Of a stretch of DNA of 64,000 nucleotides, positions 26,859-42,635 are shown piece by piece (the stretch's first letter is position 1; the number at the start of each line of letters is the position of its first letter). The DNA lies in the NCBI GenBank assembly GCA_015489175.1, contig WGAI01000012.1:36307-100306 (forward strand), given 5' to 3'. A program made the translations under genes and the position numbers. The notes beneath the pieces were generated by a model that was given only the letters and a program-made list of their open reading frames with translations, did not search any database and was not told the DNA's origin. This stretch comes from a candidate division WOR-3 bacterium (GTDB lineage: Bacteria > Hydrothermota > Hydrothermia > B15-G9).

Positions 26859-28102
26859 AACCTCGCCTTCTGCTGGTAGCGTATTACTTTCCGCCCCATA
26901 ACTTTGTCGGGGCATACAGGCCGTTGAGGCTGGCTCGCTATCTGCACCGACGCGGATGGGAGATAACAGTTTTGTCAGCTCGTGGGCCTGAGAAAAGGCG
27001 GCGTGATCCTCAACTGCTGAGCTTCCTGTCTGAGGATGTGAGGGTTTTCAGAGTGCCTTCCCCCGAAGGCGGCGAGCCAAATGCCGGCCGAACTGCCATC
27101 TTCAAGAAATTTATCCGCGAAACGCTCAACCTTTTGATGTTTCCCGACAAAAAGGTGGTCTGGGCGCTAAGAGCAGCCCGCGCATCCGTGGCCATTATCA
27201 ACAGGTTCAAACCCGATGTGGTTCTTATCACAGCGCCTCCATATTCTGCGCTCATAACCGGGCTTGTCGCAACCAGATATGGGGTGCCGTGGGTGGCTGA
27301 TTTCCGCGATGCGTGGGTCAGGGATGCGCTCGGCGCTTACAGGACGCCAATTCACAGAAAACTGGCAGTGGAAGGCGAGCGGTGGGCGGTTAGGCGAGCC
27401 GCTGCCTGCACATTTGTCAACAGACGACTCATGCATGATGTCATGGAGAGGAATCCGATGGAGGCGCATAAATTCGTTCTTGTGAGAAACGGCTTTGACC
27501 CCGAAATGCTGCCTCAAGATGTTCATCTGTCCAAAGACTTTACGATATCCTACATCGGAACGCTATACGGGCACAGGAAACCTCATATCCTGCTCAGAGG
27601 CATCGCTGAGTTCAGAAAAATGGTCCCTGATGCGGAGATAAAGCTAATCTTTGTTGGCAGAAGCGAATTTGACATCGTTGGGGCAGCTGTGGAGTTCGGC
27701 TTACCAGTTGATTGGGTGAGGCACATTGACTTTTTGGGCTATTCTGAAGCTGCACGGATCGGGATGGCGTCCACCGCTCTATGGCTCATCGTCTCGCCGA
27801 AAGAAAAAGCTGCACCTCTCACAGCGCCCGGTAAACTCTACGATTACATCGGATTCATGCGCCCAATCATCGCATCGGTTCCTGACGGGATAGTTGCCGA
27901 ATTAGTCTCGTCTCTTGACGATAGCTTTGTCGTAGATCCGAACGATGCACATGGGCTGGCAGGCGCCATAGCCGAATTGTATCGCAGGTTTCAGAGCGGT
28001 CAGATCACGGTCAACAGGGAGGCAAGGATGGAATACCACATTGCGAAATCGGCAGCGGTTCTTGATGAGGTGCTGCGCAGGACGGCGAGGTTGCGTCGAT
28101 AA
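26855..28102 (+). CDS. glycosyltransferase family 4 (GT-B fold)
   Basis: N-terminal GT4-type start (LLLVAYYFPPHNFVGAYRPLRLARYL) and a C-terminal GT-B domain. Its ATGA start/stop overlaps the C25 gene. Confidence 0.75.
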   Translation: MKPRLLLVAYYFPPHNFVGAYRPLRLARYLHRRGWEITVLSARGPEKRRRDPQLLSFLSEDVRVFRVPSPEGGEPNAGRTAIFKKFIRETLNLLMFPDKKVVWALRAARASVAIINRFKPDVVLITAPPYSALITGLVATRYGVPWVADFRDAWVRDALGAYRTPIHRKLAVEGERWAVRRAAACTFVNRRLMHDVMERNPMEAHKFVLVRNGFDPEMLPQDVHLSKDFTISYIGTLYGHRKPHILLRGIAEFRKMVPDAEIKLIFVGRSEFDIVGAAVEFGLPVDWVRHIDFLGYSEAARIGMASTALWLIVSPKEKAAPLTAPGKLYDYIGFMRPIIASVPDGIVAELVSSLDDSFVVDPNDAHGLAGAIAELYRRFQSGQITVNREARMEYHIAKSAAVLDEVLRRTARLRR

Positions 28103-28143: not shown

Positions 28144-29277
28144 ATGCAATTGCTAGAGCTTAAAGCCGTTCACAGATTCAGTGATGAGGATTTCATGCGC
28201 CTTGCTCTCCAGCTCGCGGAGCTGGGCAGAGGTTTCACACGACCAAATCCGATGGTCGGCTCCGTGATCGTGCGGAATGGCAGGATAGTCGGCGTCGGAT
28301 ACCACAAGATGGCCGGTTTGCCTCATGCTGAACGGGTTGCGCTCGCGGATTCTGGAGAACGCGCGAGAGGTGGCACGATTTATGTCACGCTTGAACCATG
28401 CGTCCATTACGGCAGGACGCCGCCCTGCGCCGATGCGATAATCGAAGCCGGCCTCAAACGCGCAGTCATAGCCACACTTGATCCCAATCCGATCGTCCAC
28501 GGCAAAGGTGTGAAGAAACTGCGAGATGCCGGTCTGGATGTCACAGTGGGAGTTCTGGAACAGGAGGCCATCGAGCTCAACGAGGTGTTCTTCAAGTTCA
28601 TGCGCACCCACAAGCCCTTTGTAGCACTAAAGCTCGCCATGACCCTTGACGGTTTCATTGCGGACAGCACTGGGAAATCTAAGTGGATAAGCAACAACGC
28701 ATCAAGGCGATATGTGCATAAGCTGAGGGGGGAGTTCGATGTCATAGCGGTTGGCGTTGGCACCGTCATCGCCGATGATCCCATGCTCAACGCAAGGGAT
28801 TTTTACTCTCCGTTTCAGCCACACAGGTTGATTCTGGACTCCAGCTTGAGGATACCGGAGGACTCTAAAGTCGTCGCCACCGCCTATGAGATTCCGACGA
28901 TCGTCGTCACGACAAAATCCACCATCAGACCTATGCGCGAGAAGGCTGAACGGCTCAGGAAGAGCGGGGTCACCGTGTGGGCTGTGGACTCAGATGAGAA
29001 CGGACTGGTTGATATTGAAAAACTGCTGGAGCACGCTGCGGGTGAGAACATTCAGTCGATACTGTTTGAAGGTGGCTCAAGGGTCGCCGGCAGACTTATC
29101 CGACTTGGCATAATCGATAAACTTTACATATTCAGCTCTAACAGGATATTGGGCGATGGAATTGCACCTTTCGGCGGCATCAAACGGGCTATGGATGACG
29201 CTATGGACGGCTTTGTGCTGAAGCACATCGAAGAATTCGACGGCGATGTGCTCAAGGTTTACTCGAAAGGGGGATAG
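28144..29277 (+). CDS. ribD: bifunctional riboflavin biosynthesis protein RibD (deaminase + reductase)
   Basis: CDA zinc motifs HAE...PCxxC (GLPHAERVAL...LEPCVHYGRTPPCADA) plus a C-terminal RibD reductase domain. 377 aa. Confidence 0.9.
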   Translation: MQLLELKAVHRFSDEDFMRLALQLAELGRGFTRPNPMVGSVIVRNGRIVGVGYHKMAGLPHAERVALADSGERARGGTIYVTLEPCVHYGRTPPCADAIIEAGLKRAVIATLDPNPIVHGKGVKKLRDAGLDVTVGVLEQEAIELNEVFFKFMRTHKPFVALKLAMTLDGFIADSTGKSKWISNNASRRYVHKLRGEFDVIAVGVGTVIADDPMLNARDFYSPFQPHRLILDSSLRIPEDSKVVATAYEIPTIVVTTKSTIRPMREKAERLRKSGVTVWAVDSDENGLVDIEKLLEHAAGENIQSILFEGGSRVAGRLIRLGIIDKLYIFSSNRILGDGIAPFGGIKRAMDDAMDGFVLKHIEEFDGDVLKVYSKGG

Positions 29278-29362
29278 GTCGGGGGATGTGAGATACAGAG
29301 AATAAACCACCGGTTTTGCCAATTGAAATTTAGGATAGCCAACGGCAAATAGCCCTGCCTTG

Positions 29363-29392
29363 TTGACCTCAATTTTTGTAAAGCTTTAAAAT
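29363..29392 (+). promoter_or_regulatory. sigma70-like promoter upstream of the pyrophosphatase gene
   Basis: TTGACC, 17-18 nt spacer, TAAAAT (TTGACCtcaatttttgtaaagctTTAAAAT), about 25 nt upstream of the start codon. Confidence 0.4.
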
Positions 29393-29415
29393 TTTCAAAA
29401 ATAGGGGGATGAATT

Positions 29416-31521
29416 ATGGTGCTCTATGGATTGATAGGTGGGTCGTTGGCGATACTGTTTGCGCTTTACCTGATTTATCGTGTAATGCAGCATGATGAGG
29501 GAACCCAGAGGATGGTCGAGATCGCGTCCTATGTGCGAGAAGGAGCCCAGTCCTATCTCAAACAGCAATACAAAGTTGTGGCCATCGTGTTTGTGATAAT
29601 TGCTGTTCTGATGCTTATCCTTGTGGCTGCGGACATGATGGAGGCACCTGCTCCATGGCTGTTCCTTGGTGGTGGTTTTCTGTCTGCCCTTGCCGGTTAC
29701 ATCGGAATGAGCATAGCTACAAGAGCGAGTGCCCGCACTGCCAATGCAGCTCGTGAAAGCCTCAACAAGGCGTTGAGGATAGCGTTTTCCGCTGGTGCTG
29801 TCATGGGTTTGATGGTCGTTGGCCTTGCCCTTCTCGGAATTACCATCTCCTATATCATTTTGAAGGCCGTTTATGGAGGGGATCTTACAAAGATAACCGT
29901 TGTGTTGCTCAACTTTGGGATGGGGGCGTCGTTCGCTGCCCTGTTCGCCCGTGTTGGCGGCGGAATTTTCACCAAAGCCGCTGATGTCGGAGCCGATCTC
30001 TCAGGTAAAGTTGAGGAGAATATCCCTGAAGACGACCCGCGTAATCCGGCTGTTATCGCTGACAATGTTGGCGACAATGTGGGTGATGTTGCGGGTATGG
30101 GGGCAGACCTTTATGAGAGTTATGTAGGCTCGATAATCGCCACGATGTCTCTGGCAACGGTCGCCGGGCTTGGTATGAAAGGGGTTGCTCTGCCGGTTAT
30201 GGTCGCAGCCGCCGGCATAGTTTCGTCGATAATAGGCACTTTCTTCGTCAAAGCCAGAGAAGATGCCTCTCAGCAAAACCTTTTGATGGCGCTGCGTCGC
30301 GGAATTTGGTCTGCAAGTATAATCATAATCATTTTGGCTTATCTCCTTGTGAAACAGCAAATTCCCGGTAACATCGGTGTCTTCTGGGCTGTGATCATAG
30401 GCCTGATTGCCGGCTTGATCATTGGTTACAGCACTGAGGTGTTCACATCTGACGCCTATCGATGGACGAGAAAGATATCCGAATCCGCCCAAACCGGAGC
30501 TGCAACCGTGATCTTGCGCGGCCTGTCTGTTGGAATGATCTCGACCGCCATCCCTGTCATCGTGGTGGCCACTGCGATAGTTGCAAGTTATTTCGTTGCA
30601 GGTGGATGGAAGGATTTCAACATGGGGCTATATGGCATCGGGCTTTCGGCAGTTGGCATGCTCTCGGTGCTTGGCATAACGCTTGCCACTGACGCCTACG
30701 GCCCTGTGGCTGACAACGCCGGCGGGAACGCTGAGATGAGCGGGCTTCCTGAGGAGGTGCGCAACAGGACTGATGCACTCGATGCTCTCGGAAACACAAC
30801 AGCAGCGACAGGTAAAGGTTTTGCCATAGGTTCGGCCGCTCTCACGGCACTCGCTCTGGTGGCTTCTTACCGCAATGCATTGCAGTTCTGGATAGACAAG
30901 TTCCAACTTCCGCCTGAGACGGTGCACAATCTTATCAAGCCGATTCTGACTGATCCCATGACCATTGCGGGCGTGTTTGTCGGAGCGATGATGCCGTTCC
31001 TGTTCTCCGCATTCGCCATCGACGCGGTCAGCGAGGCGGCTGAGAGAATAGTCGATGAAGTCAGACGTCAATTCAGGGAAATCAAGGGGCTGCTCGAAGG
31101 GAAGGCTAAGCCCGATTATGCCAGAGCTGTCGAGATCGCCACGAAAGAGGCACAGAAGAGGATGACGGTGCCATCCCTCATGGCTGTTATCGTGCCGATT
31201 TTGATAGGTTTTCTTCTTGGCCCCAACGGCGTGATAGGACTTTTGATAGGTGCTCTGACTGCCGGCTTTGCCATGGCTCTGTTTATGGCTAATTCAGGTG
31301 GTGCGTGGGACAACGCCAAAAAATACATAGAGAAAGGTAACCTCGGTGGCAAAGGCACAGATGCCCACAAGGCATCTGTCGTGGGTGATACCGTTGGTGA
31401 TCCACTTAAGGATACTGCTGGTCCTTCGCTCAACATCTTGATCAAACTCATGTCGATGGTTTCGATCGCATTCGCCGGATTTGTGCTCAAGATCACGATC
31501 GTCAGGCTTTTCATCAAGTAG
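29416..31521 (+). CDS. hppA: membrane-bound K+-dependent H+/Na+-translocating pyrophosphatase
   Basis: The DNVGDNVGD motif and multiple TM helices. GNTTAATGKG has Ala rather than Lys, the K+-dependent subfamily signature. 701 aa. Confidence 0.92.
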   Translation: MVLYGLIGGSLAILFALYLIYRVMQHDEGTQRMVEIASYVREGAQSYLKQQYKVVAIVFVIIAVLMLILVAADMMEAPAPWLFLGGGFLSALAGYIGMSIATRASARTANAARESLNKALRIAFSAGAVMGLMVVGLALLGITISYIILKAVYGGDLTKITVVLLNFGMGASFAALFARVGGGIFTKAADVGADLSGKVEENIPEDDPRNPAVIADNVGDNVGDVAGMGADLYESYVGSIIATMSLATVAGLGMKGVALPVMVAAAGIVSSIIGTFFVKAREDASQQNLLMALRRGIWSASIIIIILAYLLVKQQIPGNIGVFWAVIIGLIAGLIIGYSTEVFTSDAYRWTRKISESAQTGAATVILRGLSVGMISTAIPVIVVATAIVASYFVAGGWKDFNMGLYGIGLSAVGMLSVLGITLATDAYGPVADNAGGNAEMSGLPEEVRNRTDALDALGNTTAATGKGFAIGSAALTALALVASYRNALQFWIDKFQLPPETVHNLIKPILTDPMTIAGVFVGAMMPFLFSAFAIDAVSEAAERIVDEVRRQFREIKGLLEGKAKPDYARAVEIATKEAQKRMTVPSLMAVIVPILIGFLLGPNGVIGLLIGALTAGFAMALFMANSGGAWDNAKKYIEKGNLGGKGTDAHKASVVGDTVGDPLKDTAGPSLNILIKLMSMVSIAFAGFVLKITIVRLFIK

Positions 31522-31548
31522 TGACTGCATGGATTTCGACAAAACGAT

Positions 31549-31579
31549 GGGGCAGGGATTTACCTGCCCCATTATTCTA
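31549..31579 (+). terminator. rho-independent terminator after hppA
   Basis: GGGGCAGG-GATTTA-CCTGCCCC followed by ATTATTCT. Confidence 0.7.
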
Positions 31580-31612
31580 AGCAGAACCTGATAACTCGCC
31601 GCCGCGCTTCTG

Positions 31613-34600
31613 TTGACTTTGATTTACGACAAAACTATAATCACCAGCATGAAAGGACTGCTTCTTAGAAGGGCAAGGGAACTTGAAGCAGCAGGTTTGC
31701 TCGATGAAGCCCTCAAGGTATATGATGAATTGATTTACATGTATCCAGCTGACCCTTCACTTTACAACTTTTATGCCGATCTCCTCCTGCGAAACAACAG
31801 AGTTCAGGATGCGATTGAAAGGTTATACAGGGCTGGTGAAATTTACGAAAAGTCAGGTTTTGACAAGTATGTGGAGGCTATTTTTAAGAAGATACTCTCC
31901 ATAAATCCCTTTGAAAGACGAGCTTTGATAAAGTTGACCCAATACTATTTGAAACACGACGAGGTGGATAAAGCGCTCGAATTCCGGAATCTTTACATAC
32001 AGTATCTTCAGGAGAATGGATTTGACATAGGGTTTGCTTCTGTGCTCAATGACATGAATTACCTCGTCCAAAACTTCAGCGATGACATGGATTTTGTCAA
32101 AAAGACAGCTGAAATAGCACTAAATTTCCCCACAGAGGCGGACACCGGCGACTTTCTTTTTTCAGTCGCAAAAATTTTCGAGACAAACGGAGAGGTCGAT
32201 TACTCGATCGAACTTTACCGTCAGATAGTCAGGAAAAATGCTCGGTGTTACAAAGCGTATTACGCTCTTGGACGGCTCACCAGCAACAGGGAATACCTTG
32301 AGAGGGCTAAAGAAGAGGCAATCAAGAGGCTGCTCAACAGCTTTGATTACAATGCTGCCCAAGTCGTTGCGAATGTGCTCCTCTCGGAAGGAAACAGAAG
32401 GGAAGCTTCCAGATTTCTATCTCTGGCCGCCAGACTTGCACTCGAGAAAGGTGACAGGAAATCCGCTCAAAAACATTTCCTCAAGGCCTATGAAACCAAT
32501 AATAACAACTTTGATGCCCTTGAAAGCTACCTTGAACTCGTTGACCAGCACGATGATGGGGCTCAGATTGCGTCGTATTACATAGCACTTGCGGCTCACC
32601 ACATCACGCTTGGCAACCTGAGAAAGGCAGAGGCTTTTCTGAGGGAAGCCGGCAACTATATCGAAAATTCGAGCGGGATCGATAAAATCATACGGAATAT
32701 CAAGGTGTTCAGAAGGGTAAAGTATGCAGGTCACGGGATTAAGGATCTGCTTGTTTCCTCCTTCATTCAGCCTGATGTTGACACGGAACTGCCGACAGGG
32801 ATCGATTTTCATTCGGAAATCTTCGAGCTCATCAACATGAAAGAAAGATTTTCGTTCGCATTGCTCAGGATTGACGGCATTTTTGAGCTTGAGGAGAAGC
32901 ATGGTTCGGATGCTGCTGATGCGTTTTTGAAAAAGGCTGAAACTTATCTTATCAAGGAGCTGGGCGGAGCGAAACTCGGACGACATGATCGAGACACTTT
33001 CATGGCACTATGGATTGGGATTGACCCCGAGACTGATAAGATAGTCGATAAAATTAAGTCCGCTCAATCTAAATTCAGTCAGGATGTGTTTCTTGAGAAT
33101 TACCGCGACTATCGGACAGGATTTTCAGCTGGTATTATGAGTTCTAAAGGCTCCGTTGAGCTTGTAGATTTCCTCAGGACATTTAAGAAAGCTCTTGATA
33201 TGCTGAAAACCGTGCGGGACAGCGTTTTTGAGGTGGAGGTTGAACGAGCTGCGATTCCAGATCTTTCCGTTTTCACTGGGAGGGAATCGATTTTGTCTGA
33301 TATGCAAAGCCGCGCCTTTGGCAGAGTTCAACTCGTGACAGGAAGCACTGGTCTTGGCAAATCTGTGCTACTCAATGAGTTCATAGACCGCATGGAGAGC
33401 GAAGATGTCTATCTAATTCCAGTCAGAGGGACGCCGACACCCAATCGCCGCGACTTTGAACCGTTGCTCTCAGGCATAGTGAAATTCATGAGCTCGCTAC
33501 CGCCTGCCGAAAAGAAAACCATCACCGCAAGAACAGGCGGAGAACTTCCCATCCCCGAAAATATGCCGTTTTCGCCCGATGACAAAAAGTTCGCTGTCTT
33601 CAAATGGATAGATAAACTGCTCGACCACATCGACCAAAATGGCAAACGCATTGTTTTTGTAGTCGATGACATGCACCACCTGGACAGTTCAAGCCTTGAT
33701 GTGATTCTCCACATCGCCAATAACCTTACGCAAAAGATCAGTTTGGTTCTGAGCATCAATCCCAACTCTGAAAACGCCACAGCGAAAAGCGCACTTGCTC
33801 AATTGGAACAAACTGATGGGTTTCTTAGGATCGAGCTTAAGCCATTTGGGACCAGCGAGATCACGGATTATCTGCTGAAAGTCTATCACGCATCTGAAAT
33901 CCCCGAGGGACTTGCTGATTTCATATCCGAAATGACGGGTGGCAACCCGTTTTCTGTTGCGGAACTTGTGCTTTTCATGGACAGAAACGGTCACATAGTC
34001 TCTTCTGACGGCAAGATTAGTTGGAATAGGCTCGAAGGTGCAGCCTTCCCATCAACGCTTGATGAACTTCTGGAAAACAAGATCGCTTCACAGGATTCCA
34101 CGCTCCTCAGAATCCTCCAGACGGCAGCTGTATTCGGTTATGCATTTGACTTTGATCTCATCAGAACCACATTCAAGGATTTCGATGGCAATGTTTTGCT
34201 CCGGCTAATGGAAAACGCAATTGCGGAAGACATTGTCAGAAGCGGCGTCAATTACGGCTACGATTACGAGTTTGTAAACGAGTTGGTCAGGGACGGGGTG
34301 ATCAACTCGATACAACCTGACAAAGCTCATGTAGTGCACAATGCGATAGCTCAATATCTTGAAAACGAGTATCTGGCTGGCCGAGGGGATGTGGTCGAGG
34401 ACATGGTGAGGCACTTTGGTAAAGCAGGTGATACCCGCAAAACCATGATTTATGCGATAATAGCGGGAGAGAGGGCGCTGTCCGACTTCCGATTTGACGA
34501 GGCAAAGAGTTATTTCAGCAAGGGCGTCGAGCTTTTCAGGCAGGACAGCGTGGAGCTTCCCGAAGGGTTTATCACAAGGCTTTTTGAGGGGTATGCGAAG

Positions 34601-36133
34601 GCGCTCGAACGGCTTGGCGAATACGAAAAGGCTGACAAGGTTTTGAAGGAAGCGCTTGAGGTTGTCCCAGACAATGCGAGGATCTACAATGCGATTGGCA
34701 ACATCAAACTTACGAGATCCGAGTTCAACGATGCGCTTGATGCGTTTTACAAAGCCCTTGAGCTTTCCAGCGAGGATATTAACAAAGCTACCACCTTGAT
34801 CAACATAGGCAAAACTTATTTCATTCAAATGGAATACGGCCATGCAATCTCATCGCTCATGAAGGCCGAGAGGATTTTGCTCGAACTCGAAAATAGAACC
34901 CTGCTGAGTGAGGTAAAGTTGTTCATAGGGGCAGTGATGCGAGCGCGGGGAGAGCTCTCAAAGGCCAGAATAAACTACAAGGAAGCACTTGAAATCGCCC
35001 GTTCAGTGGGAAATCTGCGCGGAGAGATACACGCACTCAACAATCTCGGCTCAGTCTTGAGAGCTATTGGTGATGTTGAACAAGCTGAGAGATTTTTGAG
35101 AGAAGCATTTGAGCTGGCTCAAAAGGCTGGTGATATCAGGGCACGCATCGTAGCATCGAACAACCTCGGCATGGTCAAAAAGGACAGAGGGGAGCTCAAA
35201 TCGGCAATAGAAATATTTAACTCTGTTATCCATCAATCCGAAAAACTCGGGCTCAGGGACTCTGTTACAATCGCCCACATCGAGCTCGCAGAAATCAATT
35301 TCCTACTCGGGAACCTTTCCGAGGCGGAAAAGTTTGCGCGCACTGCCATTGACATGGCGGTCGAACTCGGCAGAAACCACTATGAAGCCCTTGCTATGCG
35401 GCATCTTGCACTTATAAGGCTATACACAGGCGAATTCAAGGAAGCGCTTGACCTGATCGAGAAAGCAGAGAAAAAGCTTGGGTTCAGGTATTCTATAGAG
35501 TATCTGCCGCTGATAAAACTTTCGCGTGGAGACTATTATTACAGGTTGAAACGGTTTAGTGAGGCCATATTTGCGTATCGAGATGCCCTTAATAGGGTCG
35601 AGCTTGCAGATGTGAAGAAAGTTAAAGCTATTGCGTTGTCATCACTTGTGAACATCTACATCAACACTGATGACCTACTTGATGCCGATAAGTCCTTAAT
35701 AGAAGCTGATGTCAGCATGGGCAACTCACCAATCGCCGAAGCAAAAGTCAGGTATCTTGTTGCAAAAGCAGGCATAAATGCGATCAAAAACCTCAAGGAA
35801 GAGGCAATAGACGACATCGAAAGCGCAATTTCTGCCGTGAAAAGGGACGAGATCAAAATCTACACCCCTGAAATTCTGTTGATGAAGGCCTATGTCCTGA
35901 GCAAATTCGGCGACATTAAGGAAGCAGTTGATGTCCTACTTGACGCTTACAAAATCAGCCTGGATATGGGGATTTGGGGCGTTGCGTGGGAGATAGGATA
36001 TAGGCTTTTGCAACTGGCTCCACAGCAAGCGCCAAACATAGCGGGCGAACTCAAAGAAATGATATCTCGATTCAGGGAACAGGGCAATGAGTTTGTGCCA
36101 TCAATAAAACTACCTGACGAGGACGAAGCATGA
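31613..36133 (+). CDS. 1506-aa multidomain protein: N-terminal TPR - degenerate GGDEF-like domain - P-loop NTPase (AAA_16/STAND-like) - long C-terminal TPR array
   Basis: GGDEF-fold alignment FALLRIDGIFELEEKHGSDAADAFL...KLGRHDRDTFMAL...FSAGIMS...FKKALDMLK, with RHDRDTF replacing RYGGEEF. Walker A VTGSTGLGKSV. Walker B RIVFVVDDMHHLD. At least 10 TPR-like repeats with NNLG/NAIG cores downstream. Confidence 0.7.
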   Translation: MTLIYDKTIITSMKGLLLRRARELEAAGLLDEALKVYDELIYMYPADPSLYNFYADLLLRNNRVQDAIERLYRAGEIYEKSGFDKYVEAIFKKILSINPFERRALIKLTQYYLKHDEVDKALEFRNLYIQYLQENGFDIGFASVLNDMNYLVQNFSDDMDFVKKTAEIALNFPTEADTGDFLFSVAKIFETNGEVDYSIELYRQIVRKNARCYKAYYALGRLTSNREYLERAKEEAIKRLLNSFDYNAAQVVANVLLSEGNRREASRFLSLAARLALEKGDRKSAQKHFLKAYETNNNNFDALESYLELVDQHDDGAQIASYYIALAAHHITLGNLRKAEAFLREAGNYIENSSGIDKIIRNIKVFRRVKYAGHGIKDLLVSSFIQPDVDTELPTGIDFHSEIFELINMKERFSFALLRIDGIFELEEKHGSDAADAFLKKAETYLIKELGGAKLGRHDRDTFMALWIGIDPETDKIVDKIKSAQSKFSQDVFLENYRDYRTGFSAGIMSSKGSVELVDFLRTFKKALDMLKTVRDSVFEVEVERAAIPDLSVFTGRESILSDMQSRAFGRVQLVTGSTGLGKSVLLNEFIDRMESEDVYLIPVRGTPTPNRRDFEPLLSGIVKFMSSLPPAEKKTITARTGGELPIPENMPFSPDDKKFAVFKWIDKLLDHIDQNGKRIVFVVDDMHHLDSSSLDVILHIANNLTQKISLVLSINPNSENATAKSALAQLEQTDGFLRIELKPFGTSEITDYLLKVYHASEIPEGLADFISEMTGGNPFSVAELVLFMDRNGHIVSSDGKISWNRLEGAAFPSTLDELLENKIASQDSTLLRILQTAAVFGYAFDFDLIRTTFKDFDGNVLLRLMENAIAEDIVRSGVNYGYDYEFVNELVRDGVINSIQPDKAHVVHNAIAQYLENEYLAGRGDVVEDMVRHFGKAGDTRKTMIYAIIAGERALSDFRFDEAKSYFSKGVELFRQDSVELPEGFITRLFEGYAKALERLGEYEKADKVLKEALEVVPDNARIYNAIGNIKLTRSEFNDALDAFYKALELSSEDINKATTLINIGKTYFIQMEYGHAISSLMKAERILLELENRTLLSEVKLFIGAVMRARGELSKARINYKEALEIARSVGNLRGEIHALNNLGSVLRAIGDVEQAERFLREAFELAQKAGDIRARIVASNNLGMVKKDRGELKSAIEIFNSVIHQSEKLGLRDSVTIAHIELAEINFLLGNLSEAEKFARTAIDMAVELGRNHYEALAMRHLALIRLYTGEFKEALDLIEKAEKKLGFRYSIEYLPLIKLSRGDYYYRLKRFSEAIFAYRDALNRVELADVKKVKAIALSSLVNIYINTDDLLDADKSLIEADVSMGNSPIAEAKVRYLVAKAGINAIKNLKEEAIDDIESAISAVKRDEIKIYTPEILLMKAYVLSKFGDIKEAVDVLLDAYKISLDMGIWGVAWEIGYRLLQLAPQQAPNIAGELKEMISRFREQGNEFVPSIKLPDEDEA

Positions 36134-37626
36134 AGCAGCACATAATTTATGCCCATAAGGCATTTATAGACGGCAAATTTGACGAAAATGTCACCATCAG
36201 AATCATAGGCGATAAGATCGCAAGCGTTACTAAAGAGAGGGTTCCGGGATTTGGCAGCTACATAAGCATAGGGCCGGGTTATGCCCTATTGCCCGCTTTC
36301 GTTGATACTCACACCCACATGATCGGACGAGGTCTCCATCTTGTAAGGCCTAAACTGGACAAAGCAAGAACGCTCAAGGATGCACTTGAGGTTGTGGAGC
36401 AAGCAGTGAAGAACTACGATCTATCTGAAGTTGTTATCATTGAGGGATATGACGAGAGTTTCTGGCCTGAAGGCAGGGCGCCCACGCGTCAGGAGCTGGA
36501 TCAGGTTGCCCCTGCCCGGCCCGTGGTTTTGAGGCGAATTTGTGGACACATTGGAGTTGCCAATAGCAAAGCCCTCTCTATGATACCCATTGAAACCCCC
36601 GGAGTTGATAGGCGAGGTGGATTGCTCGTGGAGACCGTTCCGCTCAATATTTCAGACTATTTTCCGCCGACTGATAAGGAGCTTCAGGCTGCCTTATCCG
36701 CCGCCCAGAAGGAATTCTGGTCGCTTGGCATAGGCACAGTCAGCGAATTCGGGAAATGGGAGTTTATGCGGGTGTATCAGGAAGCACTTCGGAAGAGACA
36801 GCTGAAAATAAGGGTTTACTTCTCGTATTACCTCGAGCTTTTTGATGCCATAAAAAGGCTTGGGCTTCAAAGTGGTTTTGGTGATTCATATCTGAGAATT
36901 GGTGGTATAAAACTGTTTGCTGATGGTTCTGTTGGTGCGCGGACAGCGGCATTTTTCGATCCCTACAACGACGATCCTGAGAACTTTGGCAAGCTATTTT
37001 TCGACGCAAAGCGGATAGCTGACATTATTAGGCTTGCTGAAGAAGCAGGGCTTCAGGTCATCATCCATGCGATCGGCGATCGTGCAATCGAGGCGGCGAT
37101 AGATGGCATATCTCATGGCACGGATGGGAACAAAAACATGTTGCATCACAGAATTGAACACTTTGAGTTTCCGACGAAAGGGCAGATAGAGCGTGCCGCC
37201 AGCCTTAACATCAGAATCTCGATACAGCCTAACTTTGCGGTCAGATGGGGAGTCCCCAACGGCATGTATGAAAAAAGGCTTGGCAAGGAGCGGATGTATA
37301 GGAACAACCCGATTAAGTCCCTGATAGATTCTGGCGTTAAGTTCGCTTTCGGTTCCGACGCTATGCCTCCCTCACCTGCGCTCGGCATCAAAGCGGCAAT
37401 GATGCATCCCATTCCCAGAGAGCGCATCGACATGGAAACAGGGATAAGGCTTTACACCGAAGCCGCTCAGGATCTCATGTTTATGCCGGGAATAGGCAAA
37501 ATTCAGAGGGGATATTTCGCCGATTTCATCATCGTGAAACTGATAGATCTATCGGTTCAGGCTCTGGCCATAGGCGGGGATTTCGTTTACATGGTGCCCG
37601 AATATCGAAATTTGTTCAGAGTCTGA
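36130..37626 (+). CDS. metal-dependent amidohydrolase (Amidohydro_3 family), translationally coupled to the upstream multidomain NTPase
   Basis: VDTHTHM, carboxylated-Lys context IKLFADGS, HAIGDRA, HRIEH and GSDA motifs in amidohydrolase order. 498 aa. The start overlaps the upstream stop (ATGA). Confidence 0.8.
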   Translation: MKQHIIYAHKAFIDGKFDENVTIRIIGDKIASVTKERVPGFGSYISIGPGYALLPAFVDTHTHMIGRGLHLVRPKLDKARTLKDALEVVEQAVKNYDLSEVVIIEGYDESFWPEGRAPTRQELDQVAPARPVVLRRICGHIGVANSKALSMIPIETPGVDRRGGLLVETVPLNISDYFPPTDKELQAALSAAQKEFWSLGIGTVSEFGKWEFMRVYQEALRKRQLKIRVYFSYYLELFDAIKRLGLQSGFGDSYLRIGGIKLFADGSVGARTAAFFDPYNDDPENFGKLFFDAKRIADIIRLAEEAGLQVIIHAIGDRAIEAAIDGISHGTDGNKNMLHHRIEHFEFPTKGQIERAASLNIRISIQPNFAVRWGVPNGMYEKRLGKERMYRNNPIKSLIDSGVKFAFGSDAMPPSPALGIKAAMMHPIPRERIDMETGIRLYTEAAQDLMFMPGIGKIQRGYFADFIIVKLIDLSVQALAIGGDFVYMVPEYRNLFRV

Positions 37627-37628
37627 GG

Positions 37629-38510
37629 CTAATCGATATTTTTAAAACCTTCTCCAAAAACTTCATGCACATGAGAGACCATCATGAATGCCCTGGGATC
37701 TTCTTCCCGAACAATGCTTTTCACCCTTGCGAGCTCGCGCCGCCTTCTTAACACAGTCAGAACAACATCGATGTCCTTTCCGCTGTATGCTCCCTGTCCT
37801 TTCAAAAATGTGACGCCGCGGTTGACCTCGTTTATGATTCGTTTCGCTATTTTCTTGCCGTGCATGCTGATTATGATGACTTGAGTTGAGATCGCGACAC
37901 CTGTCAAAACGGAATCGATTGTGAAAGAATTCACTATTACGGCGAGAAGGGAATACATGCCTATCGTAATGCCAAAAGACGCGGCTGCGAAAAGTGTTAT
38001 TGTGAAATCTATCAGCAAAAGTCCTTTAGGCACATCGAGATCCGTCAGTTTTTTAAGTATCATAGCGATTATGTCGGTACCGCCTGTGGATGCGTCGGTG
38101 GAAAAGACCAGTGCCATGCCGGTGCCAGTTAGGAAGTCGCCAAACAGCACGGCCAGAATCATGTCGTTTGTGAGTCCATTCGGGGGCAAAAACCTTGAAA
38201 GTAGGTCAACAAAAACGGACAGCGCTACCGTGGCATAGAAGCTTTTGATACCAAATCCGAGGCTCAGTATCCTGATTGCTATCAAGAATAGCAATGCATT
38301 CAGAACCAGCATCGTGGCGCCTACCGGGACATGAAGGAGGTAATGCAATATGGTTGCAAGCCCGCTTACTCCACCAGCGGCTATCCTGTTGGGAACGAGA
38401 AAAAGGTCCAACCCCAATGCTACCAGTATAACTCCAAGAGTGATAACAGCGTAGGTTTTCAAAGGCCTGAAGTCCAATTGTCTGTTTTTTTGATGGGATT
38501 TCTTCTTCAT
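37629..38510 (-). CDS. YitT-family membrane protein (DUF161 + DUF2179)
   Basis: Five TM helices with the GGTD motif region (STGGTDIIAMIL) and a C-terminal DUF2179-like domain. 293 aa. Confidence 0.75.
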   Translation of the reverse strand: MKKKSHQKNRQLDFRPLKTYAVITLGVILVALGLDLFLVPNRIAAGGVSGLATILHYLLHVPVGATMLVLNALLFLIAIRILSLGFGIKSFYATVALSVFVDLLSRFLPPNGLTNDMILAVLFGDFLTGTGMALVFSTDASTGGTDIIAMILKKLTDLDVPKGLLLIDFTITLFAAASFGITIGMYSLLAVIVNSFTIDSVLTGVAISTQVIIISMHGKKIAKRIINEVNRGVTFLKGQGAYSGKDIDVVLTVLRRRRELARVKSIVREEDPRAFMMVSHVHEVFGEGFKNID

Positions 38511-38540
38511 AGTGGGCTCCGATTGGGGTAAAACGAAAAG

Positions 38541-38612
38541 AGCGGGAGACGGGATTTGAACCCGCGACCCCTACCTTGGCAAGGTAGTGCTCTACCACTG
38601 AGCTACTCCCGC
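38541..38612 (-). tRNA. tRNA-Gly (anticodon GCC)
   Basis: Minus-strand sequence GCGGGAGTAGCTCAGTGGTAGAGCACTACCTTGCCAAGGTAGGGGTCGCGGGTTCAAATCCCGTCTCCCGCT. It forms a cloverleaf with a 7-bp acceptor stem and TPsiC loop GGTTCAAATCC. The anticodon loop is CTTGCCAAG. Discriminator U; no encoded CCA. Confidence 0.9.
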
Positions 38613-38629
38613 TCAAATAAAGCGCTCAA

Positions 38630-38659
38630 ATTATAACCAAAAATTTTGTTTTCTGTCAA
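38630..38659 (-). promoter_or_regulatory. near-consensus sigma70 promoter for tRNA-Gly
   Basis: On the minus strand: TTGACA, 18 nt spacer, TATAAT, then 17 nt to the tRNA 5' end (TTGACAgaaaacaaaatttttggtTATAATttgagcgctttatttgaGCGGGAG). Confidence 0.6.
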
Positions 38660-38678
38660 CACGCCGACATCACTCATT

Positions 38679-38959
38679 TAAAATGTTACCGAAATGAGAC
38701 CGCTCACCAAATGATAATGTTACCAAAACGGAGGTAAAATATGCATAAAGTCCACCTATGAGCTTCTCTGAAAGGCGCAAACATTTGCTCCTGATGAGAC
38801 CTCGCTATAAAAAGCCTCAAGAAAGACATATCCTCCTCGATGAAATGCAACAGATCACAGCTCTCCACCGTAAGTCAATCATCCTGCTTCGCCTACCTTT
38901 CCCGATCAAGGAAATACACTTCGATAATGGGAGCTAACATTTTCTCGGTAACATTTTCA
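38679..38959. repeat. inverted/direct repeat set (AAAATGTTACCGA core) upstream of the tRNA-Gly promoter
   Basis: AAAATGTTACCGAAA at 38679-38693, related ATAATGTTACCAAAA at 38714-38728, and the reverse complement TCGGTAACATTTTCA at 38945-38959. GAAATGAGA also recurs at 38691 and 39006. Confidence 0.5.
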
Positions 38960-39099
38960 TTTGACTTGAAACGGCGAATCCTGCTGAACATAACACCACA
39001 AAATATGAAATGAGATGTGAAAAAAATGTTTTTTTCATTTCAACAAAATCTCAACCTTCGTGTCAAACTTGGGTTCGGGCTAAAGTGGCAGTGGACACG

Positions 39100-39133
39100 A
39101 AAAATAAAAGGGTGCCACCATAAGGTGACACCC
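39100..39133 (-). terminator. rho-independent terminator of the alpha-galactosidase-like gene (minus strand)
   Basis: On the minus strand: GGGTGTCACC-TTAT-GGTGGCACCC followed by TTTTATTTTTCG. Confidence 0.85.
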
Positions 39134-39156
39134 TCCAGACCGGTTACTTCCCGTCG

Positions 39157-41061
39157 TTAACCAAGTTTCTTTAGCTCAACATAACCGCCCACAGGAACCT
39201 TAACTTTGTCGATCACTTGCCTGTATCCCTTCTCGACCATATTGTGAGCGTAATCGTATGCCCTGTATTCCATAGCATCAGGCGCTTCTGTCTCTGCAAC
39301 AAACAGCTCCTCCCTTGATGTAGCGTTCAGGATGAGAATCCTATCTCTGTAAGGCAGGAACGGAATTTCAAGCGCTGGGTGCAACACGGTTATCATAGCC
39401 GTGTGGCCGTCATCCCTTTTCCAGACCATCAGTGACGGATCAAGCGGCTCAAAATCGCCGTCACGGTAGAGCGGTAACAACGAGTTGAACAGGCCGAGCC
39501 ATGCGCGCATGATTCGCTTCTGCTTCTCAGGCATCTTCAGCGGGTTGATAGTGAAATTGGGCACCCCCATAGAGACTTGCCTAATTAACAACAGTGCGAG
39601 ATGCTCCGGTGACTCGTATTCCGTCCAGATGCCGTAATCGTTATGCACCACAGGCACATAGGCCGAAGGATACATGGAGCGCAACATCATTATGTTCGGA
39701 TCAAACGGCGAATCGCCGCCTCTGACCACGCTCGCATAAACGCTGAGTTCCACATTCCCGTAATTGTTTTTGATACTATACATGAAGTCGGGATCGCGCT
39801 TCCGCGCCGCCTCAAAAAGCTCGCGGTAAATCAATCTGATGCCGTCCGATGTCGTGGGCACATCGTGCTCGTGGTCGGCGTCGCACGGCTCATCCGGCAT
39901 GTAGTCGAAGAGGTCAATCTTAACGCCTCCTGCACCGTAATCTATGAGCTTCAATAGGTTGTCTATCATGATCTGGCGCGCCTCAGGGTTCCTGACGCAA
40001 AGTGTGTGGAACCCGGCGGGGCACTTGTAAAGCTTCCCATTCACATGGGCCAGATACGGCCTGTACCGCTCAAGGTTGCGCGAATGTGGGCCGACACATA
40101 TCGGGCAATACCACAAAATCGGGTTAATTCCGATCTTCTTAAGCTCCTTGATCGTGTCTCTGATGTCGTCGAACTTGCCAGGCACCGTTATCGGCCAATC
40201 GCCTATGTCGATCACCATCGACACGGAATCGAGACCGTGGCCATACCAGCCATCGTCGAATATGAACGCCTTAAGTCCGAGGTCGGCCGCCGCCTTCGCA
40301 GCTTCAACCACCCACTCATGCGTCATGTGGTCGGAGTTGATTACTCGCCATGTGCACATTGCGGGGTAAAATGCGCGGTCGGTCTTGTAGAATTTCAGGT
40401 TGCGCATGGCCTGATACTTGCGGCCATACCTGCGAAGCTCATGCCACCATGTCTTTTCACTGCCTCCGACATAGAACCCGTCCTCAAAAACTTTCAACCT
40501 GCCAAGCGTTATCCCTTTGCCGACTGGCTTCGTTATGCGGAATTTCAGCCTGCCACCTTGCACGGTCAGAGAGTTTTTTCGGTTAGCTCCTGGCGAGAAG
40601 AAATGAAATTCCGTGTCCTTTAGGTCGCCGAGCAGGCCAAGCGCAAAGAGCGGCTTCTCCTGAAGGTCCAGCAGCGCAATGAACGGGTTGCCGAACGCGC
40701 GCCCGGTCAGAGTGAACTTCCTCGACCACACCTGTCGCGGCAGAAAATGGTTCATGTAAAAGCGGCCAGAATCCGGGACGATTACTTTGCCGAAATTCAG
40801 GAGCGGCAAACTAAATGTGTAAATGACACGCGTTAAATCCATCTCCTTGCCGTCTTCCCGATAAAACTTGAACCTCGGATGCCCATCCTCATCGAACCAC
40901 AGCTCAACCACATAACCGTCGCGGTGGTAAACTCCTTCCCGTATGGTGGAAATACCCTGAAAGTTAACTTTTTTGCCGTCAACCTCGGCCATAAAGTAGA
41001 ACCTTTTGAGCTTCACCTTCATGGTTTCCCTCCATTTTTGAGGCGTATTTTTACAACCCAA
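39157..41061 (-). CDS. alpha-galactosidase/melibiase-like glycoside hydrolase (GH36/GH27 clan)
   Basis: TIM-barrel motifs KAFIFDDGWYG and GVKIDLFDY, typical of the DDGW and KxD nucleophile regions in clan GH-D. 634 aa. Probable start at internal MKVKLKRFYF (about 41022). No signal peptide. Confidence 0.65.
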   Translation of the reverse strand: MGCKNTPQKWRETMKVKLKRFYFMAEVDGKKVNFQGISTIREGVYHRDGYVVELWFDEDGHPRFKFYREDGKEMDLTRVIYTFSLPLLNFGKVIVPDSGRFYMNHFLPRQVWSRKFTLTGRAFGNPFIALLDLQEKPLFALGLLGDLKDTEFHFFSPGANRKNSLTVQGGRLKFRITKPVGKGITLGRLKVFEDGFYVGGSEKTWWHELRRYGRKYQAMRNLKFYKTDRAFYPAMCTWRVINSDHMTHEWVVEAAKAAADLGLKAFIFDDGWYGHGLDSVSMVIDIGDWPITVPGKFDDIRDTIKELKKIGINPILWYCPICVGPHSRNLERYRPYLAHVNGKLYKCPAGFHTLCVRNPEARQIMIDNLLKLIDYGAGGVKIDLFDYMPDEPCDADHEHDVPTTSDGIRLIYRELFEAARKRDPDFMYSIKNNYGNVELSVYASVVRGGDSPFDPNIMMLRSMYPSAYVPVVHNDYGIWTEYESPEHLALLLIRQVSMGVPNFTINPLKMPEKQKRIMRAWLGLFNSLLPLYRDGDFEPLDPSLMVWKRDDGHTAMITVLHPALEIPFLPYRDRILILNATSREELFVAETEAPDAMEYRAYDYAHNMVEKGYRQVIDKVKVPVGGYVELKKLG

Positions 41062-41444: not shown

Positions 41445-42635
41445 ATGAAACTGCTTTTGTTGATGGTTTTCGCTTTTGGTGATACGCTGCACCTGACGAT
41501 GGACAAAGCAGTTGAAATCGCTTTAAAAAACAGTCCGACATTGAATTCGAGCCGTGAGCAGTCTCGAATGGGCAGGCTGAACTTCATGGAATCAGCTCTG
41601 TCGTATGGGGTTGTGCCGACGCTAAGCTTCAACAAGATCGACACAATGCCGTCAACCCAGAACTTCACCCTTAACCTCACCATTTTCAGCATAAACGGCT
41701 TAAATTCAGTGGTGAACTCATTCGCATCTGCCCGCTCATCGTCATACGCGCTCCAGCAGAGCAGGAATTCGCTCATCCTCAATGTGAAAACGAGCTATCT
41801 CATGGCCCTGTCCGCGCAAAAGTCATACATGGCGCGCGTTAAGCAGCTCAAAAGGGCTCAGGAGAACCTCAGGTTTGTCCAGGCGCAATACGAGCTCGGC
41901 AACGCAAGCCGACTTGACCTTCTCGGCGCAAAAGTTCAAGCTGGACAGGCAAAGCTCAATGTGCTCAAGGCTGAAACCGATTACCGCAACAGCATAAGCA
42001 ACTTAGCGGTCGTGCTCGGATTTGACCCGTCGAGGCCAATTCTGTGCGATGACATTGAGATGGAGATCGATACTGCACTGCTCCCCCCCGATTCGCTTGT
42101 GAAGATTGCAATGGAAAACAGACCTGATCTGCGTTCGCTGAGGGCGTCACTTTGTGCTTCAAAGGCATCGTTCTGGCTCAAAACCTTCTCGTTCCTGCCG
42201 AGCGTGAGCTACAACTTAGAATGGGACAGGAAGGAAGGTCAGGCGTGGACGAAAACTGGCCCGAAAAGATACATCTCCCTACAGTTCAACATACTCGGCT
42301 ATCCATTCCGTGTGGCTGGAGGTCTTGGTTCAGTGAGAAAAGCGGAGTTTGAATATCGAGCCGCTTACCTTCAGGCCGCCAACGAAATAATTTCAAGGTA
42401 TAACGACTTTAAGACCGCTTACAGCAGTTACATGCTGGCAAAAGAGGTGTTTGAGCAGGCGAAAGCCGCCTATGAGCTTGCGAAAGTTCAACATCAGGCC
42501 GGCCAGATAGGCATTATCGAGCTATTCAAAGCCGAAAGCGACCTCGCTGATGCAGAATCGCAGCTCTATTCCGCACGGTATCAGCTATACATCGCAAAGG
42601 AAAAACTGGATTACTCGGTCGGCACAATTCAGTAA
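41445..42635 (+). CDS. TolC-family outer-membrane efflux protein (orphan)
   Basis: ORF 41337..42635. The start at 41445 (MKLLLLMVFAF signal peptide) is preceded by a GGGAGGA RBS. Two OEP repeats with coiled-coil character. No adjacent periplasmic adaptor or transporter. Confidence 0.75.
   Translation: MKLLLLMVFAFGDTLHLTMDKAVEIALKNSPTLNSSREQSRMGRLNFMESALSYGVVPTLSFNKIDTMPSTQNFTLNLTIFSINGLNSVVNSFASARSSSYALQQSRNSLILNVKTSYLMALSAQKSYMARVKQLKRAQENLRFVQAQYELGNASRLDLLGAKVQAGQAKLNVLKAETDYRNSISNLAVVLGFDPSRPILCDDIEMEIDTALLPPDSLVKIAMENRPDLRSLRASLCASKASFWLKTFSFLPSVSYNLEWDRKEGQAWTKTGPKRYISLQFNILGYPFRVAGGLGSVRKAEFEYRAAYLQAANEIISRYNDFKTAYSSYMLAKEVFEQAKAAYELAKVQHQAGQIGIIELFKAESDLADAESQLYSARYQLYIAKEKLDYSVGTIQ

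Follow-up and report, generated by a model that had tools for sequence, protein, structure and literature searches.

The question raised by this locus is whether a very large P-loop NTPase, encoded directly ahead of an amidohydrolase, belongs to anti-phage defence or to the signalling machinery of the cell. The two genes appear as plus-strand open reading frames (ORFs), at 31613..36133 and 36130..37626, in a stretch of 64,000 nucleotides (nt) of contig WGAI01000012.1 (assembly GCA_015489175.1) from a candidate division WOR-3 bacterium; this whole stretch is referred to below as the window. An earlier note on this DNA had described the pair as a sensing or defence-like module. For the large protein, sensing remains a reasonable description, but the defence-like part found no support, as no defence protein was recognised by PADLOC. 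We consider it probable that the large protein is a chromosomal, vertically inherited signal-transduction STAND NTPase, present in a few WOR-3/Hydrothermota, rather than a component of anti-phage defence.

Domain architecture and class of the large protein

The order of domains that had been read from the sequence, namely tetratricopeptide repeats (TPR), a GGDEF-like domain, AAA_16 and again TPR, was confirmed by Pfam, by profile searches and by AlphaFold (AF2) models (Table 1). The motifs named together with it were also recovered, i.e. the RHDRDTF region of the GGDEF-like domain, Walker A (GSTGLGKS, 33341-33364) and VFVVDDMHHLD (33653-33685), in which VFVVDD (33653-33670) is Walker B. When the whole protein was scanned with Pfam, AAA_16 (PF13191) was found above cut-off at amino acids (aa) 544-700 with an E value of 5.5e-11, the AAA_16 and ATPase_2 matches spanning aa 544-772, and the C-terminal part matched TPR_12 (E 1.2e-43) and TPR_MalT (E 6.2e-23) at aa ~980-1320. 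Walker A (GxxGxGK[ST]) and the DD of Walker B are retained in 13/13 clusters of the family defined below. The features expected of a STAND protein are present, namely both Walker motifs, a tripartite nucleotide-binding oligomerisation domain (NOD) that is homologous over its full length, and a C-terminal sensor of TPR repeats.

The NOD profile, of 435 positions, aligns over positions ~4-432 with more than 50 AAA_16 proteins at 93-196 bits, and these partners are signalling proteins in which AAA_16 is linked to Pkinase, Guanylate_cyc, BTAD or GerE domains. The effector domain directly precedes AAA_16 in those relatives, and a dead GGDEF domain occupies the same slot here. The view that a GGDEF-like domain sits in the effector position is thereby upheld, as the relatives hold cyclase, kinase and BTAD domains there. 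With the AF2 model of the NOD (pLDDT 90.1), the best and only globally consistent match given by Foldseek was MalT in the MalT-MalY complex (8bob_C; E 2.9e-10, TM 0.65/0.67, root-mean-square deviation (rmsd) 5.6 Å). Avs3, Apaf-1, CED-4 and ORC/Cdc6 were matched only locally, with TMq values of 0.3-0.4 and rmsd >12 Å, the figures for Avs3 being E 1.7e-9, TMq 0.38-0.39 and rmsd ~20 Å. By profile and by modelled fold, the large protein is thus assigned to the signalling branch of STAND NTPases (MalT/AfsR/cyclase-kinase AAA_16). Grouping with AfsR/LuxR-type AAA_16 regulators had been named in advance as an outcome that would speak against a defence module, and both the NOD profile and the MalT fold point to it, albeit without the DNA-binding domain of such regulators.

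Indeed, none of PF00196, PF00486 and PF03704, which represent DNA-binding outputs, was matched by Pfam in the window protein, in line with the first reading of the sequence, and because such a domain is absent the protein is not a member of the MalT/AfsR transcription-factor family. Nor did Pfam find in it a nuclease, protease, TIR or other effector domain. With the STAND transcription factors MalT and AfsR/GutR the window protein shares the type of NOD (AAA_16 P-loop, helical domain, winged helix), its C-terminal sensor matches TPR_MalT, and both it and MalT are chromosomal, non-defence STAND proteins; it differs from them in having no LuxR/GerE or SARP domain and, instead, an N-terminal TPR region and a dead GGDEF domain. 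No NCBIfam family reached its cut-off for either the STAND protein or the amidohydrolase, the STAND protein scoring 25.6 with MalT (cut-off 537) and 41.6 with AfsR (cut-off 1430). In a published phylogeny (PMC13581612), STAND clades with and without a role in defence are intermingled, and MalT, GutR and AfsR are among those without. By sequence, the NOD is most closely related, within the range of bit scores given above, to class III adenylate cyclase- and Ser/Thr kinase-AAA_16-TPR proteins, which have the same order of effector, NOD and TPR, with a cyclase-type palm domain directly before AAA_16; in the window protein, however, the palm domain is of GGDEF type and dead, and an extra TPR region of 345 aa lies ahead of it. 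We take these relatives to be the 'predicted ATPases' of COG3899/COG3903 type and the mycobacterial Rv0386-like cyclases.

The chassis and its logic are thus known, but the combination of N-terminal TPR, degenerate GGDEF, AAA_16 NOD and TPR was not found outside 13 protein clusters, which fall into two clades. Among the best 120 of 307 relatives from a search of 5.8 billion proteins, five proteins had the full architecture (100, 85, 43, 42 and 36% identity). The remainder of these 120 combine AAA_16 and TPR with a Ser/Thr kinase, class III cyclase, SARP/BTAD, LuxR/GerE or winged-helix domain, and no other GGDEF-AAA_16 fusion is among them. When 1.84 billion cluster representatives were searched exhaustively by HMMER, using an N-terminal profile of 555 positions, only the two known clusters came up together with one distant protein, P0248. 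The latter has the same architecture and stands for clade B, a set of eight clusters (~1585 aa) with 20-22% identity to the window protein, which itself belongs to clade A. All family loci with a named organism are from WOR-3/Hydrothermota. A scan of genome contigs found three species with the family, using patterns that would miss clade B, while no further members were found in the JGI metagenome scan and no relatives on viral contigs in the IMG/VR scan. One clade-B genome encodes a second STAND protein, of Ser/Thr-kinase-AAA_16-TPR type (L049, 1-1203, minus strand), ~6 kb from its GGDEF-STAND gene, so that a small genome of this group can contain several signalling STANDs.

To follow inheritance, dN/dS and dS were compared between the window and its 85%-identity relative, L001 (Table 1). 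Every domain of the STAND protein is under purifying selection (dN/dS 0.06-0.25), and its dS of 0.41-0.64 is like that of the flanking hppA and YitT genes. The C-terminal TPR sensor is the most conserved domain (93/54/54/41% identity to relatives), and the first ~100 residues of the N-terminal TPR region are nearly invariant within the clade in the alignment. As had been noted earlier, the pair lies between hppA, upstream, and tRNA-Gly(GCC), downstream, except that a convergent YitT/DUF2179 gene intervenes between the amidohydrolase and the tRNA. YitT and tRNA-Gly(GCC) follow the amidohydrolase in the window and in L001-L003, and gene order across the block, from the STAND gene through the amidohydrolase and YitT to tRNA-Gly, is conserved in relatives of 42-85% identity. 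Synteny of the pair across all relatives had likewise been listed as an observation that would count against the module as proposed, and in the relatives examined this is largely what is seen. The STAND block, as far as its sequence tells, has diverged at the same pace as the core genes around it and is vertically inherited. The G+C content of the region (0.465-0.483) is slightly below the window average of ~0.51.

A tRNA-linked genomic island was considered and rejected, as no integrase was found among the ORFs of the window, no tRNA-derived (att) repeats were found in 29000-40000, and tRNA-Gly is syntenic with the block in relatives. Together with the core-gene dS, the same observations leave the idea that the pair is accessory cargo without support. 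The N-terminal ~110 residues were also considered as a specific shared module, but the proteins that they match are generic all-TPR proteins that begin with a TPR.

By analogy with other STAND proteins, the large protein is most likely a ligand-gated, NTP-dependent oligomerising switch, the output of which would be protein-protein contact through the N-terminal TPR region and the dead GGDEF domain. The C-terminal TPR array would keep the NOD off until a conserved endogenous ligand or partner binds; binding would free the NOD for nucleotide exchange on its intact P-loop and allow oligomerisation, and oligomerisation would cluster the N-terminal modules. The dead GGDEF domain would serve as a dimerising adaptor, and the highly conserved N-terminal TPR platform of 345 aa as the surface that engages downstream proteins. 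The output is not synthesis of c-di-GMP, because the GG[DE]EF motif and the metal- and guanine-binding residues are lost in every family member. GGDEF and class III cyclase domains both function as dimers, which makes plausible a history in which an ancestral diguanylate-cyclase-STAND fusion, activated by oligomerisation, later lost catalysis and kept the dead domain as an adaptor. In clade A, the amidohydrolase, predicted to be co-transcribed and translationally coupled, may make or remove the sensed ligand or may be the bound partner.

Several points weigh against this reading and should be considered together with it. The protein has no characterised close homologue, and its ligand, partners and output are all inferred. 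Part of the fold match between the NOD and MalT stems from the fact that the resting conformation was modelled, and as only 13 sequence clusters are known, the conservation statistics are thin. Without a recognisable output domain, the protein could be a scaffold or a chaperone and not a switch. Moreover, the tight junction with the amidohydrolase is retained at 36-43% protein identity, which hints at a stronger functional tie to that enzyme than is assumed here. If the reading is right, the family would be another case of a MalT-type STAND chassis that swaps its output module, here for a GGDEF domain that later lost catalysis, and would add one case to what is known of cyclase domains that die and are kept as adaptors. 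Its practical value is limited, as only a handful of uncultured WOR-3/Hydrothermota genomes carry the family.

Table 1 Features of the locus in window coordinates, with dN/dS and dS between the window and its 85%-identity relative
Feature	Position	Strand	Basis	dN/dS	dS
hppA				0.005	0.54
G+C-rich hairpin after hppA, likely terminator	31547..31572		Terminator-like scan
Consensus sigma-70-type promoter (TTGACT, 17 nt, TATAAT)	31613..31641	+	11/12 matches
STAND NTPase gene, 1494 aa (TPR, degenerate GGDEF, AAA_16 NOD, TPR)	31649..36133	+	Pfam, alignment, public gene calls
N-terminal TPR region, aa 1-345	31649..32683	+	TPR_16/TPR_19 at aa 6-62, weaker TPR/ARM matches to ~344	0.17	0.43
GGDEF-fold domain, aa ~378-530, degenerate active site	32780..33238	+	PF00990, PDB profile, AF2 and Foldseek	0.25	0.41
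NOD, aa 539-964 (P-loop NTPase, helical domain, winged helix)	33263..34540	+	Pfam, profile, AF2	0.23	0.50
C-terminal TPR sensor array, aa 965-1494	34541..36130	+	TPR_12, TPR_MalT	0.058	0.64
YtcJ-like Amidohydro_3 metal-dependent hydrolase, 498 aa	36130..37626	+	PF07969, E 2.4e-75	0.024	0.58
Convergent YitT/DUF2179 membrane protein gene	37629..38510	-	Pfam; syntenic in L001-L004; conserved block, outside operon	0.047	0.39
tRNA-Gly(GCC)	38540..38612	-	Syntenic with block in relatives

The probable transcription unit and the neighbouring amidohydrolase

The length of 1506 aa first given to the large protein, which assumed a start at TTG 31613, is too long. This TTG is part of the TTGACT -35 hexamer (31613-31618), and in the alignment all homologues begin MK[GA]LL, with M1 and K2 invariant, at the ATG equivalent to 31649, so that the start was placed at ATG 31649; the public gene calls likewise give 1494 aa, and the window also matches a contig of assembly GCA_027052935.1. 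The TATAAT of the promoter ends 7 nt before this ATG, and for this reason the STAND mRNA is predicted to be leaderless. The layout TTGAC[T/A/G], 17-18 nt, TATAAT, 7 nt, ATG is present at 9/9 family loci of clades A and B (the window, L001, L002, L003, L005, L031, L049, L050 and L051), and is kept despite differing upstream genes and the 20-22% protein identity between the clades. In the window, the exact pattern occurs once, against 0 occurrences expected by chance, and no comparable -35/-10 pair abuts the start of any other long ORF. Canonical sigma-70-type promoters are evidently used in this organism, since tRNA-Gly(GCC) has a perfect 12/12 promoter (TTGACA, 18 nt, TATAAT; 38659-38630, minus strand), and this supports the promoter at 31613. 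A start codon that abuts its promoter in this way may be of interest for leaderless translation in deep-branching bacteria.

The hairpin downstream of hppA, which is also found in L001, is likely the hppA terminator and would separate hppA from the operon. For the amidohydrolase, a Shine-Dalgarno-like GAGGA sits within the 3' end of the STAND ORF. From this arrangement, the two genes most likely form one bicistronic transcription unit with its own promoter, a view that is supported by the single promoter together with the tight junction at all five clade-A loci. The stop codon of the STAND gene and the start codon of the amidohydrolase do share 4 nt (ATGA), as had been described, but the overlap by itself is weak evidence of a functional unit, because 4-nt overlaps are common in the window, where they occur at five same-strand junctions.

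The amidohydrolase matches PF07969 with 255 bits (cut-off 29.7) and, over its full length, the uncharacterised hydrolase 3icj in the PDB (E 7.4e-54); 3icj and 3igh, uncharacterised YtcJ-like proteins from Pyrococcus, share with it the conserved HxH, K, H, H and D. The conserved motifs are HxH (HTH), K-LFADGS, HAIGD, RIEH and GSD, and we read HxH, the (carboxylated) K, H, H and D as the binuclear-metal ligands of the amidohydrolase superfamily. Such YtcJ-like amidohydrolases are widespread in the phylum. Those nearest to the window enzyme outside clade A are 44-49% identical, colinear and equipped with the same HxH, K, H, H, D motifs, and they lie in housekeeping neighbourhoods, after Peptidase_M23 genes with short overlaps and before MatE or NUDIX genes. 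Tight clustering of the enzyme with a known metabolic enzyme that is unrelated to the upstream gene in other genomes had been named as a further point against the module, and in this respect its nearest relatives in other genomes adjoin unrelated M23 peptidase, MatE and NUDIX genes. An orthologous-looking amidohydrolase coupled to Peptidase_M23 was seen in 3/4 contexts examined (L025 7174-9515, L027 7198-9449 and L029 7204-9443), a coupling that may hint at a role of the amidohydrolase in cell-wall peptide metabolism.

In clade A, the amidohydrolase directly follows the STAND gene at 5/5 loci. The two genes overlap by 4 nt in the window, L001 and L002 and are separated by 5 nt in L003 and by 9 nt in L005, and the gene upstream of the pair varies by locus (hppA, an aminotransferase or a pyrimidine-nucleoside phosphorylase, PyNP). 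In clade B, no amidohydrolase neighbour was found at any of 3 loci, where a polyprenyl synthase or a convergent NUDIX gene follows instead. Amidohydro_3 was present in the flanks of 0 of ~30 loci of more distant AAA_16-TPR relatives, and tblastn with the amidohydrolase over all 48 fetched loci found only the clade-A loci and those that had been fetched through the amidohydrolase itself, which speaks against a general co-occurrence of Amidohydro_3 with AAA_16-TPR proteins. The pairing is thus real and conserved in one clade but is a property of neither protein family, and, as clade B has no enzyme neighbour and the nearest other amidohydrolases follow M23 genes, the operon is specific to its clade.

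As an alternative explanation, the two genes could form a dedicated module, in which the enzyme would make or destroy a small molecule that is read by the TPR sensor, or in which STAND oligomers would recruit and control the enzyme by way of the N-terminal TPR platform. We regard this as a tentative possibility, somewhat doubtful as it stands. The shared promoter and the GAGGA within the STAND gene argue for it, as does a junction that remains tight at five loci of 36-85% identity while the upstream flank changes. In addition, 4/5 of the paired amidohydrolases share a C-terminal tail, [VA]PEY[RQ]..F.., that the unpaired ones lack. A precedent is given by MalT, which the enzymes MalY and Aes control by binding to it directly, and it is MalT in complex with MalY that the NOD model matches best in fold. 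These points have to be set against the STAND genes of clade B, which never adjoin the enzyme at the 3 loci, against the nearest amidohydrolases, which trail M23 peptidase genes with the same type of overlap, and against the ~30 distant loci where the enzyme is missing from the flanks. Overlaps of 4 nt are routine in this compact genome, and the enzyme evolves far more slowly than its supposed partner (97/82/78/62% identity, against 85/43/42/36% for the STAND protein).

A more specific proposal, which we consider unlikely, is that the protein is a new kind of STAND output device, neither transcriptional nor lethal. Once a ligand has driven oligomerisation, its dead-GGDEF/TPR platform would directly bring in a client enzyme, be it the co-translated amidohydrolase or another one, and switch it. 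If true, enzyme activity would be the readout, replacing gene expression or cell death, and the leaderless transcript, itself conserved, would fix the ratio in which the two proteins are made.

The degenerate GGDEF domain

The GGDEF domain was missed when the whole protein was scanned with Pfam, but scanned alone it matches PF00990 with 24.5 bits (cut-off 23.8), and PF00990 is matched by 5/5 clade-A members with a best E value of 1e-17. A profile of the domain matches solved GGDEF domains (DgcR 6zxb, E 1.2e-11), and with its AlphaFold model (pLDDT 83.8, pTM 0.80) the top 50 Foldseek matches in the PDB are all diguanylate-cyclase domains, at TM 0.55-0.70. The active site, nonetheless, is not that of a cyclase. 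In place of GG[DE]EF the protein has DRDTF (32987-33001), within RHDRDTF at 32981-33001. In comparison with DgcR, D-I-D-K-F-K-N-I-N-D…G-H-x-x-G-D reads R-I-D-G-I-F-E-L-E-E…G-S-D-A-A-D, and R-F-G-G-E-E-F reads R-H-D-R-D-T-F. From the roles known for PleD and DgcR, we take the lost residues to be the metal-binding Asp, the guanine-binding Asn, both glycines and the catalytic Glu. The catalytic motif is degenerate in 13/13 clusters (DRDTF, DDVTF, DESVF and HGDAF in clade A; Y[DQ][DG][IV]F in clade B), and, to judge from these motifs, the domain is catalytically dead in all family members. An active diguanylate cyclase was accordingly considered and rejected, as the GG[DE]EF motif and the metal- and guanine-binding residues are lost. 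No conserved copy of the RxxD I-site was found in any family member, the window protein reading KELGGAKLGRH-DRDTF there.

A dead domain may still bind a nucleotide, and the protein could in that case be a second-messenger receptor, in which the degenerate GGDEF domain would bind GTP, c-di-GMP or another nucleotide and couple its level to STAND oligomerisation. The fold is indeed intact and under purifying selection (dN/dS 0.25), all clade-A members have an R-H pair ahead of the site of the former GGDEF motif, variant motifs of RHD[DE].TF type occur in other proteins (P0305, and RYDEDTF in P0295), and a canonical GGDEF protein is encoded near the relative L003, so that c-di-GMP signalling exists in the lineage. 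For other NTPase systems, it has been proposed that cyclase-like domains devoid of catalytic activity 'merely bind a nucleotide' (PMC7159879). The residues that would be required, however, do not behave as expected of a receptor: the I-site is absent, and the positions of the guanine-binding Asn/Asp and of the metal-binding Asp are replaced and not conserved even within the family, a pattern that, at the level of sequence, argues against retained nucleotide binding. The R-H pair is absent from clade B (R-L/F-Y), and the GGDEF-like domain is the least conserved domain of the protein (80/26/25/24% identity to relatives, i.e. 24-26% between sub-clades). We therefore hold a receptor of this kind to be quite improbable, and an adaptor role for the dead domain within a signalling STAND remains the reading that we prefer.

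Domains that retain the fold and have lost the catalytic motif are also seen in FimX (3hva) and DosP, which are among the PDB matches. In these, the dead GGDEF domain is paired with EAL, and c-di-GMP or GTP is bound elsewhere, whereas the partner of the GGDEF domain in the window protein is a STAND NOD and its nucleotide-binding residues are unconserved. Literature searches for a GGDEF-STAND fusion found no description of one. What came closest were the rare GGDEF domains of vWA-MoxR conflict systems, which are unrelated (PMC7159879), and the same article cites the homology of GGDEF domains to nucleotide cyclases (Pei & Grishin 2001, as cited in PMC7159879).

Two unrelated proteins, P0305 (495 aa, ARHDDETF) and P0295 (1274 aa, ARYDEDTF), carry a similar variant motif in place of RxGGDEF. 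Their sequences suggest that degenerate GGDEF domains with an acidic motif of HDDxTF type make up a wider class, as yet undescribed.

The defence reading and other features of the window

The earlier note had likened the large protein to Avs-type antiviral STANDs and the pair, by analogy, to RADAR. Like Avs, the window protein is indeed a large STAND NTPase in which C-terminal repeats form a long sensor, and the logic of an N-terminal effector position is common to both. It differs from Avs in that it matches no Avs HMM, has no effector enzyme and fits the Avs3 fold poorly, and in that its sensor is conserved rather than diversifying, its context is that of core genes and its inheritance appears vertical; the likeness to Avs was therefore abandoned. 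The likeness to RADAR fared no better, as no RdrA or RdrB model was matched in PADLOC and the enzyme is of Amidohydro_3 (YtcJ-like) type and not an adenosine deaminase. For the STAND protein, PADLOC gave only generic TPR models, a P-loop stretch of 26 aa from mad8 and a weak CARF match, and for the amidohydrolase it matched 0 families.

An anti-phage system, in which an Avs-like STAND sensor would act with the amidohydrolase as its effector under the RADAR-like logic of an ATPase and an amidohydrolase-superfamily enzyme, is highly improbable: the large size of the STAND NTPase, its long repeat sensor and the hydrolase next door, the match to Avs3 at E 1.7e-9 (with a TMq of only 0.38) and the slightly low G+C content are outweighed by the lack of any matching PADLOC model for Avs, RdrA, RdrB or another defence protein, by an effector position that holds TPR and a degenerate GGDEF domain and no nuclease, protease, TIR, SIR2 or the like, by a sensor that is better conserved than any other domain, contrary to what an arms-race receptor would show, by a dS equal to that of the core neighbours, by synteny in relatives, by housekeeping neighbours with no integrase, att repeats or other defence genes nearby, and by the lack of relatives on viral contigs. 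It should thus be noted that a large STAND protein with an adjacent hydrolase is insufficient to call a defence system.

Some further features of the window were recorded. A family of 20-nt direct repeats (AAGGAAGCGCTTGA...) has five copies between 34646 and 36395, spaced by 333-480 nt. It is coding and not regulatory, and stems from the recurring K-E-A-L-E/D with which helices of the TPR array begin; a single copy falls in the amidohydrolase, where it encodes KDALE. At 42629-46045 on the minus strand, a protein of 1138 aa with several WD40/beta-propeller regions is encoded beside an outer-membrane efflux (OEP) gene; its only matches are sub-threshold ones to eukaryote-derived propeller models. 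A gene at 22443-26858 on the plus strand encodes a protein of 1471 aa in which Peptidase_C25 (gingipain-like) is combined with Big_1 and FG-GAP repeats, and a GT4 glycosyltransferase gene (26855-28102, plus strand) overlaps it by 4 nt. Nearby large proteins end in FlgD_ig (12800-15736) and in Por_Secre_tail (15741-17948), which suggests secreted cargo of the type handled by the type IX secretion system (T9SS).

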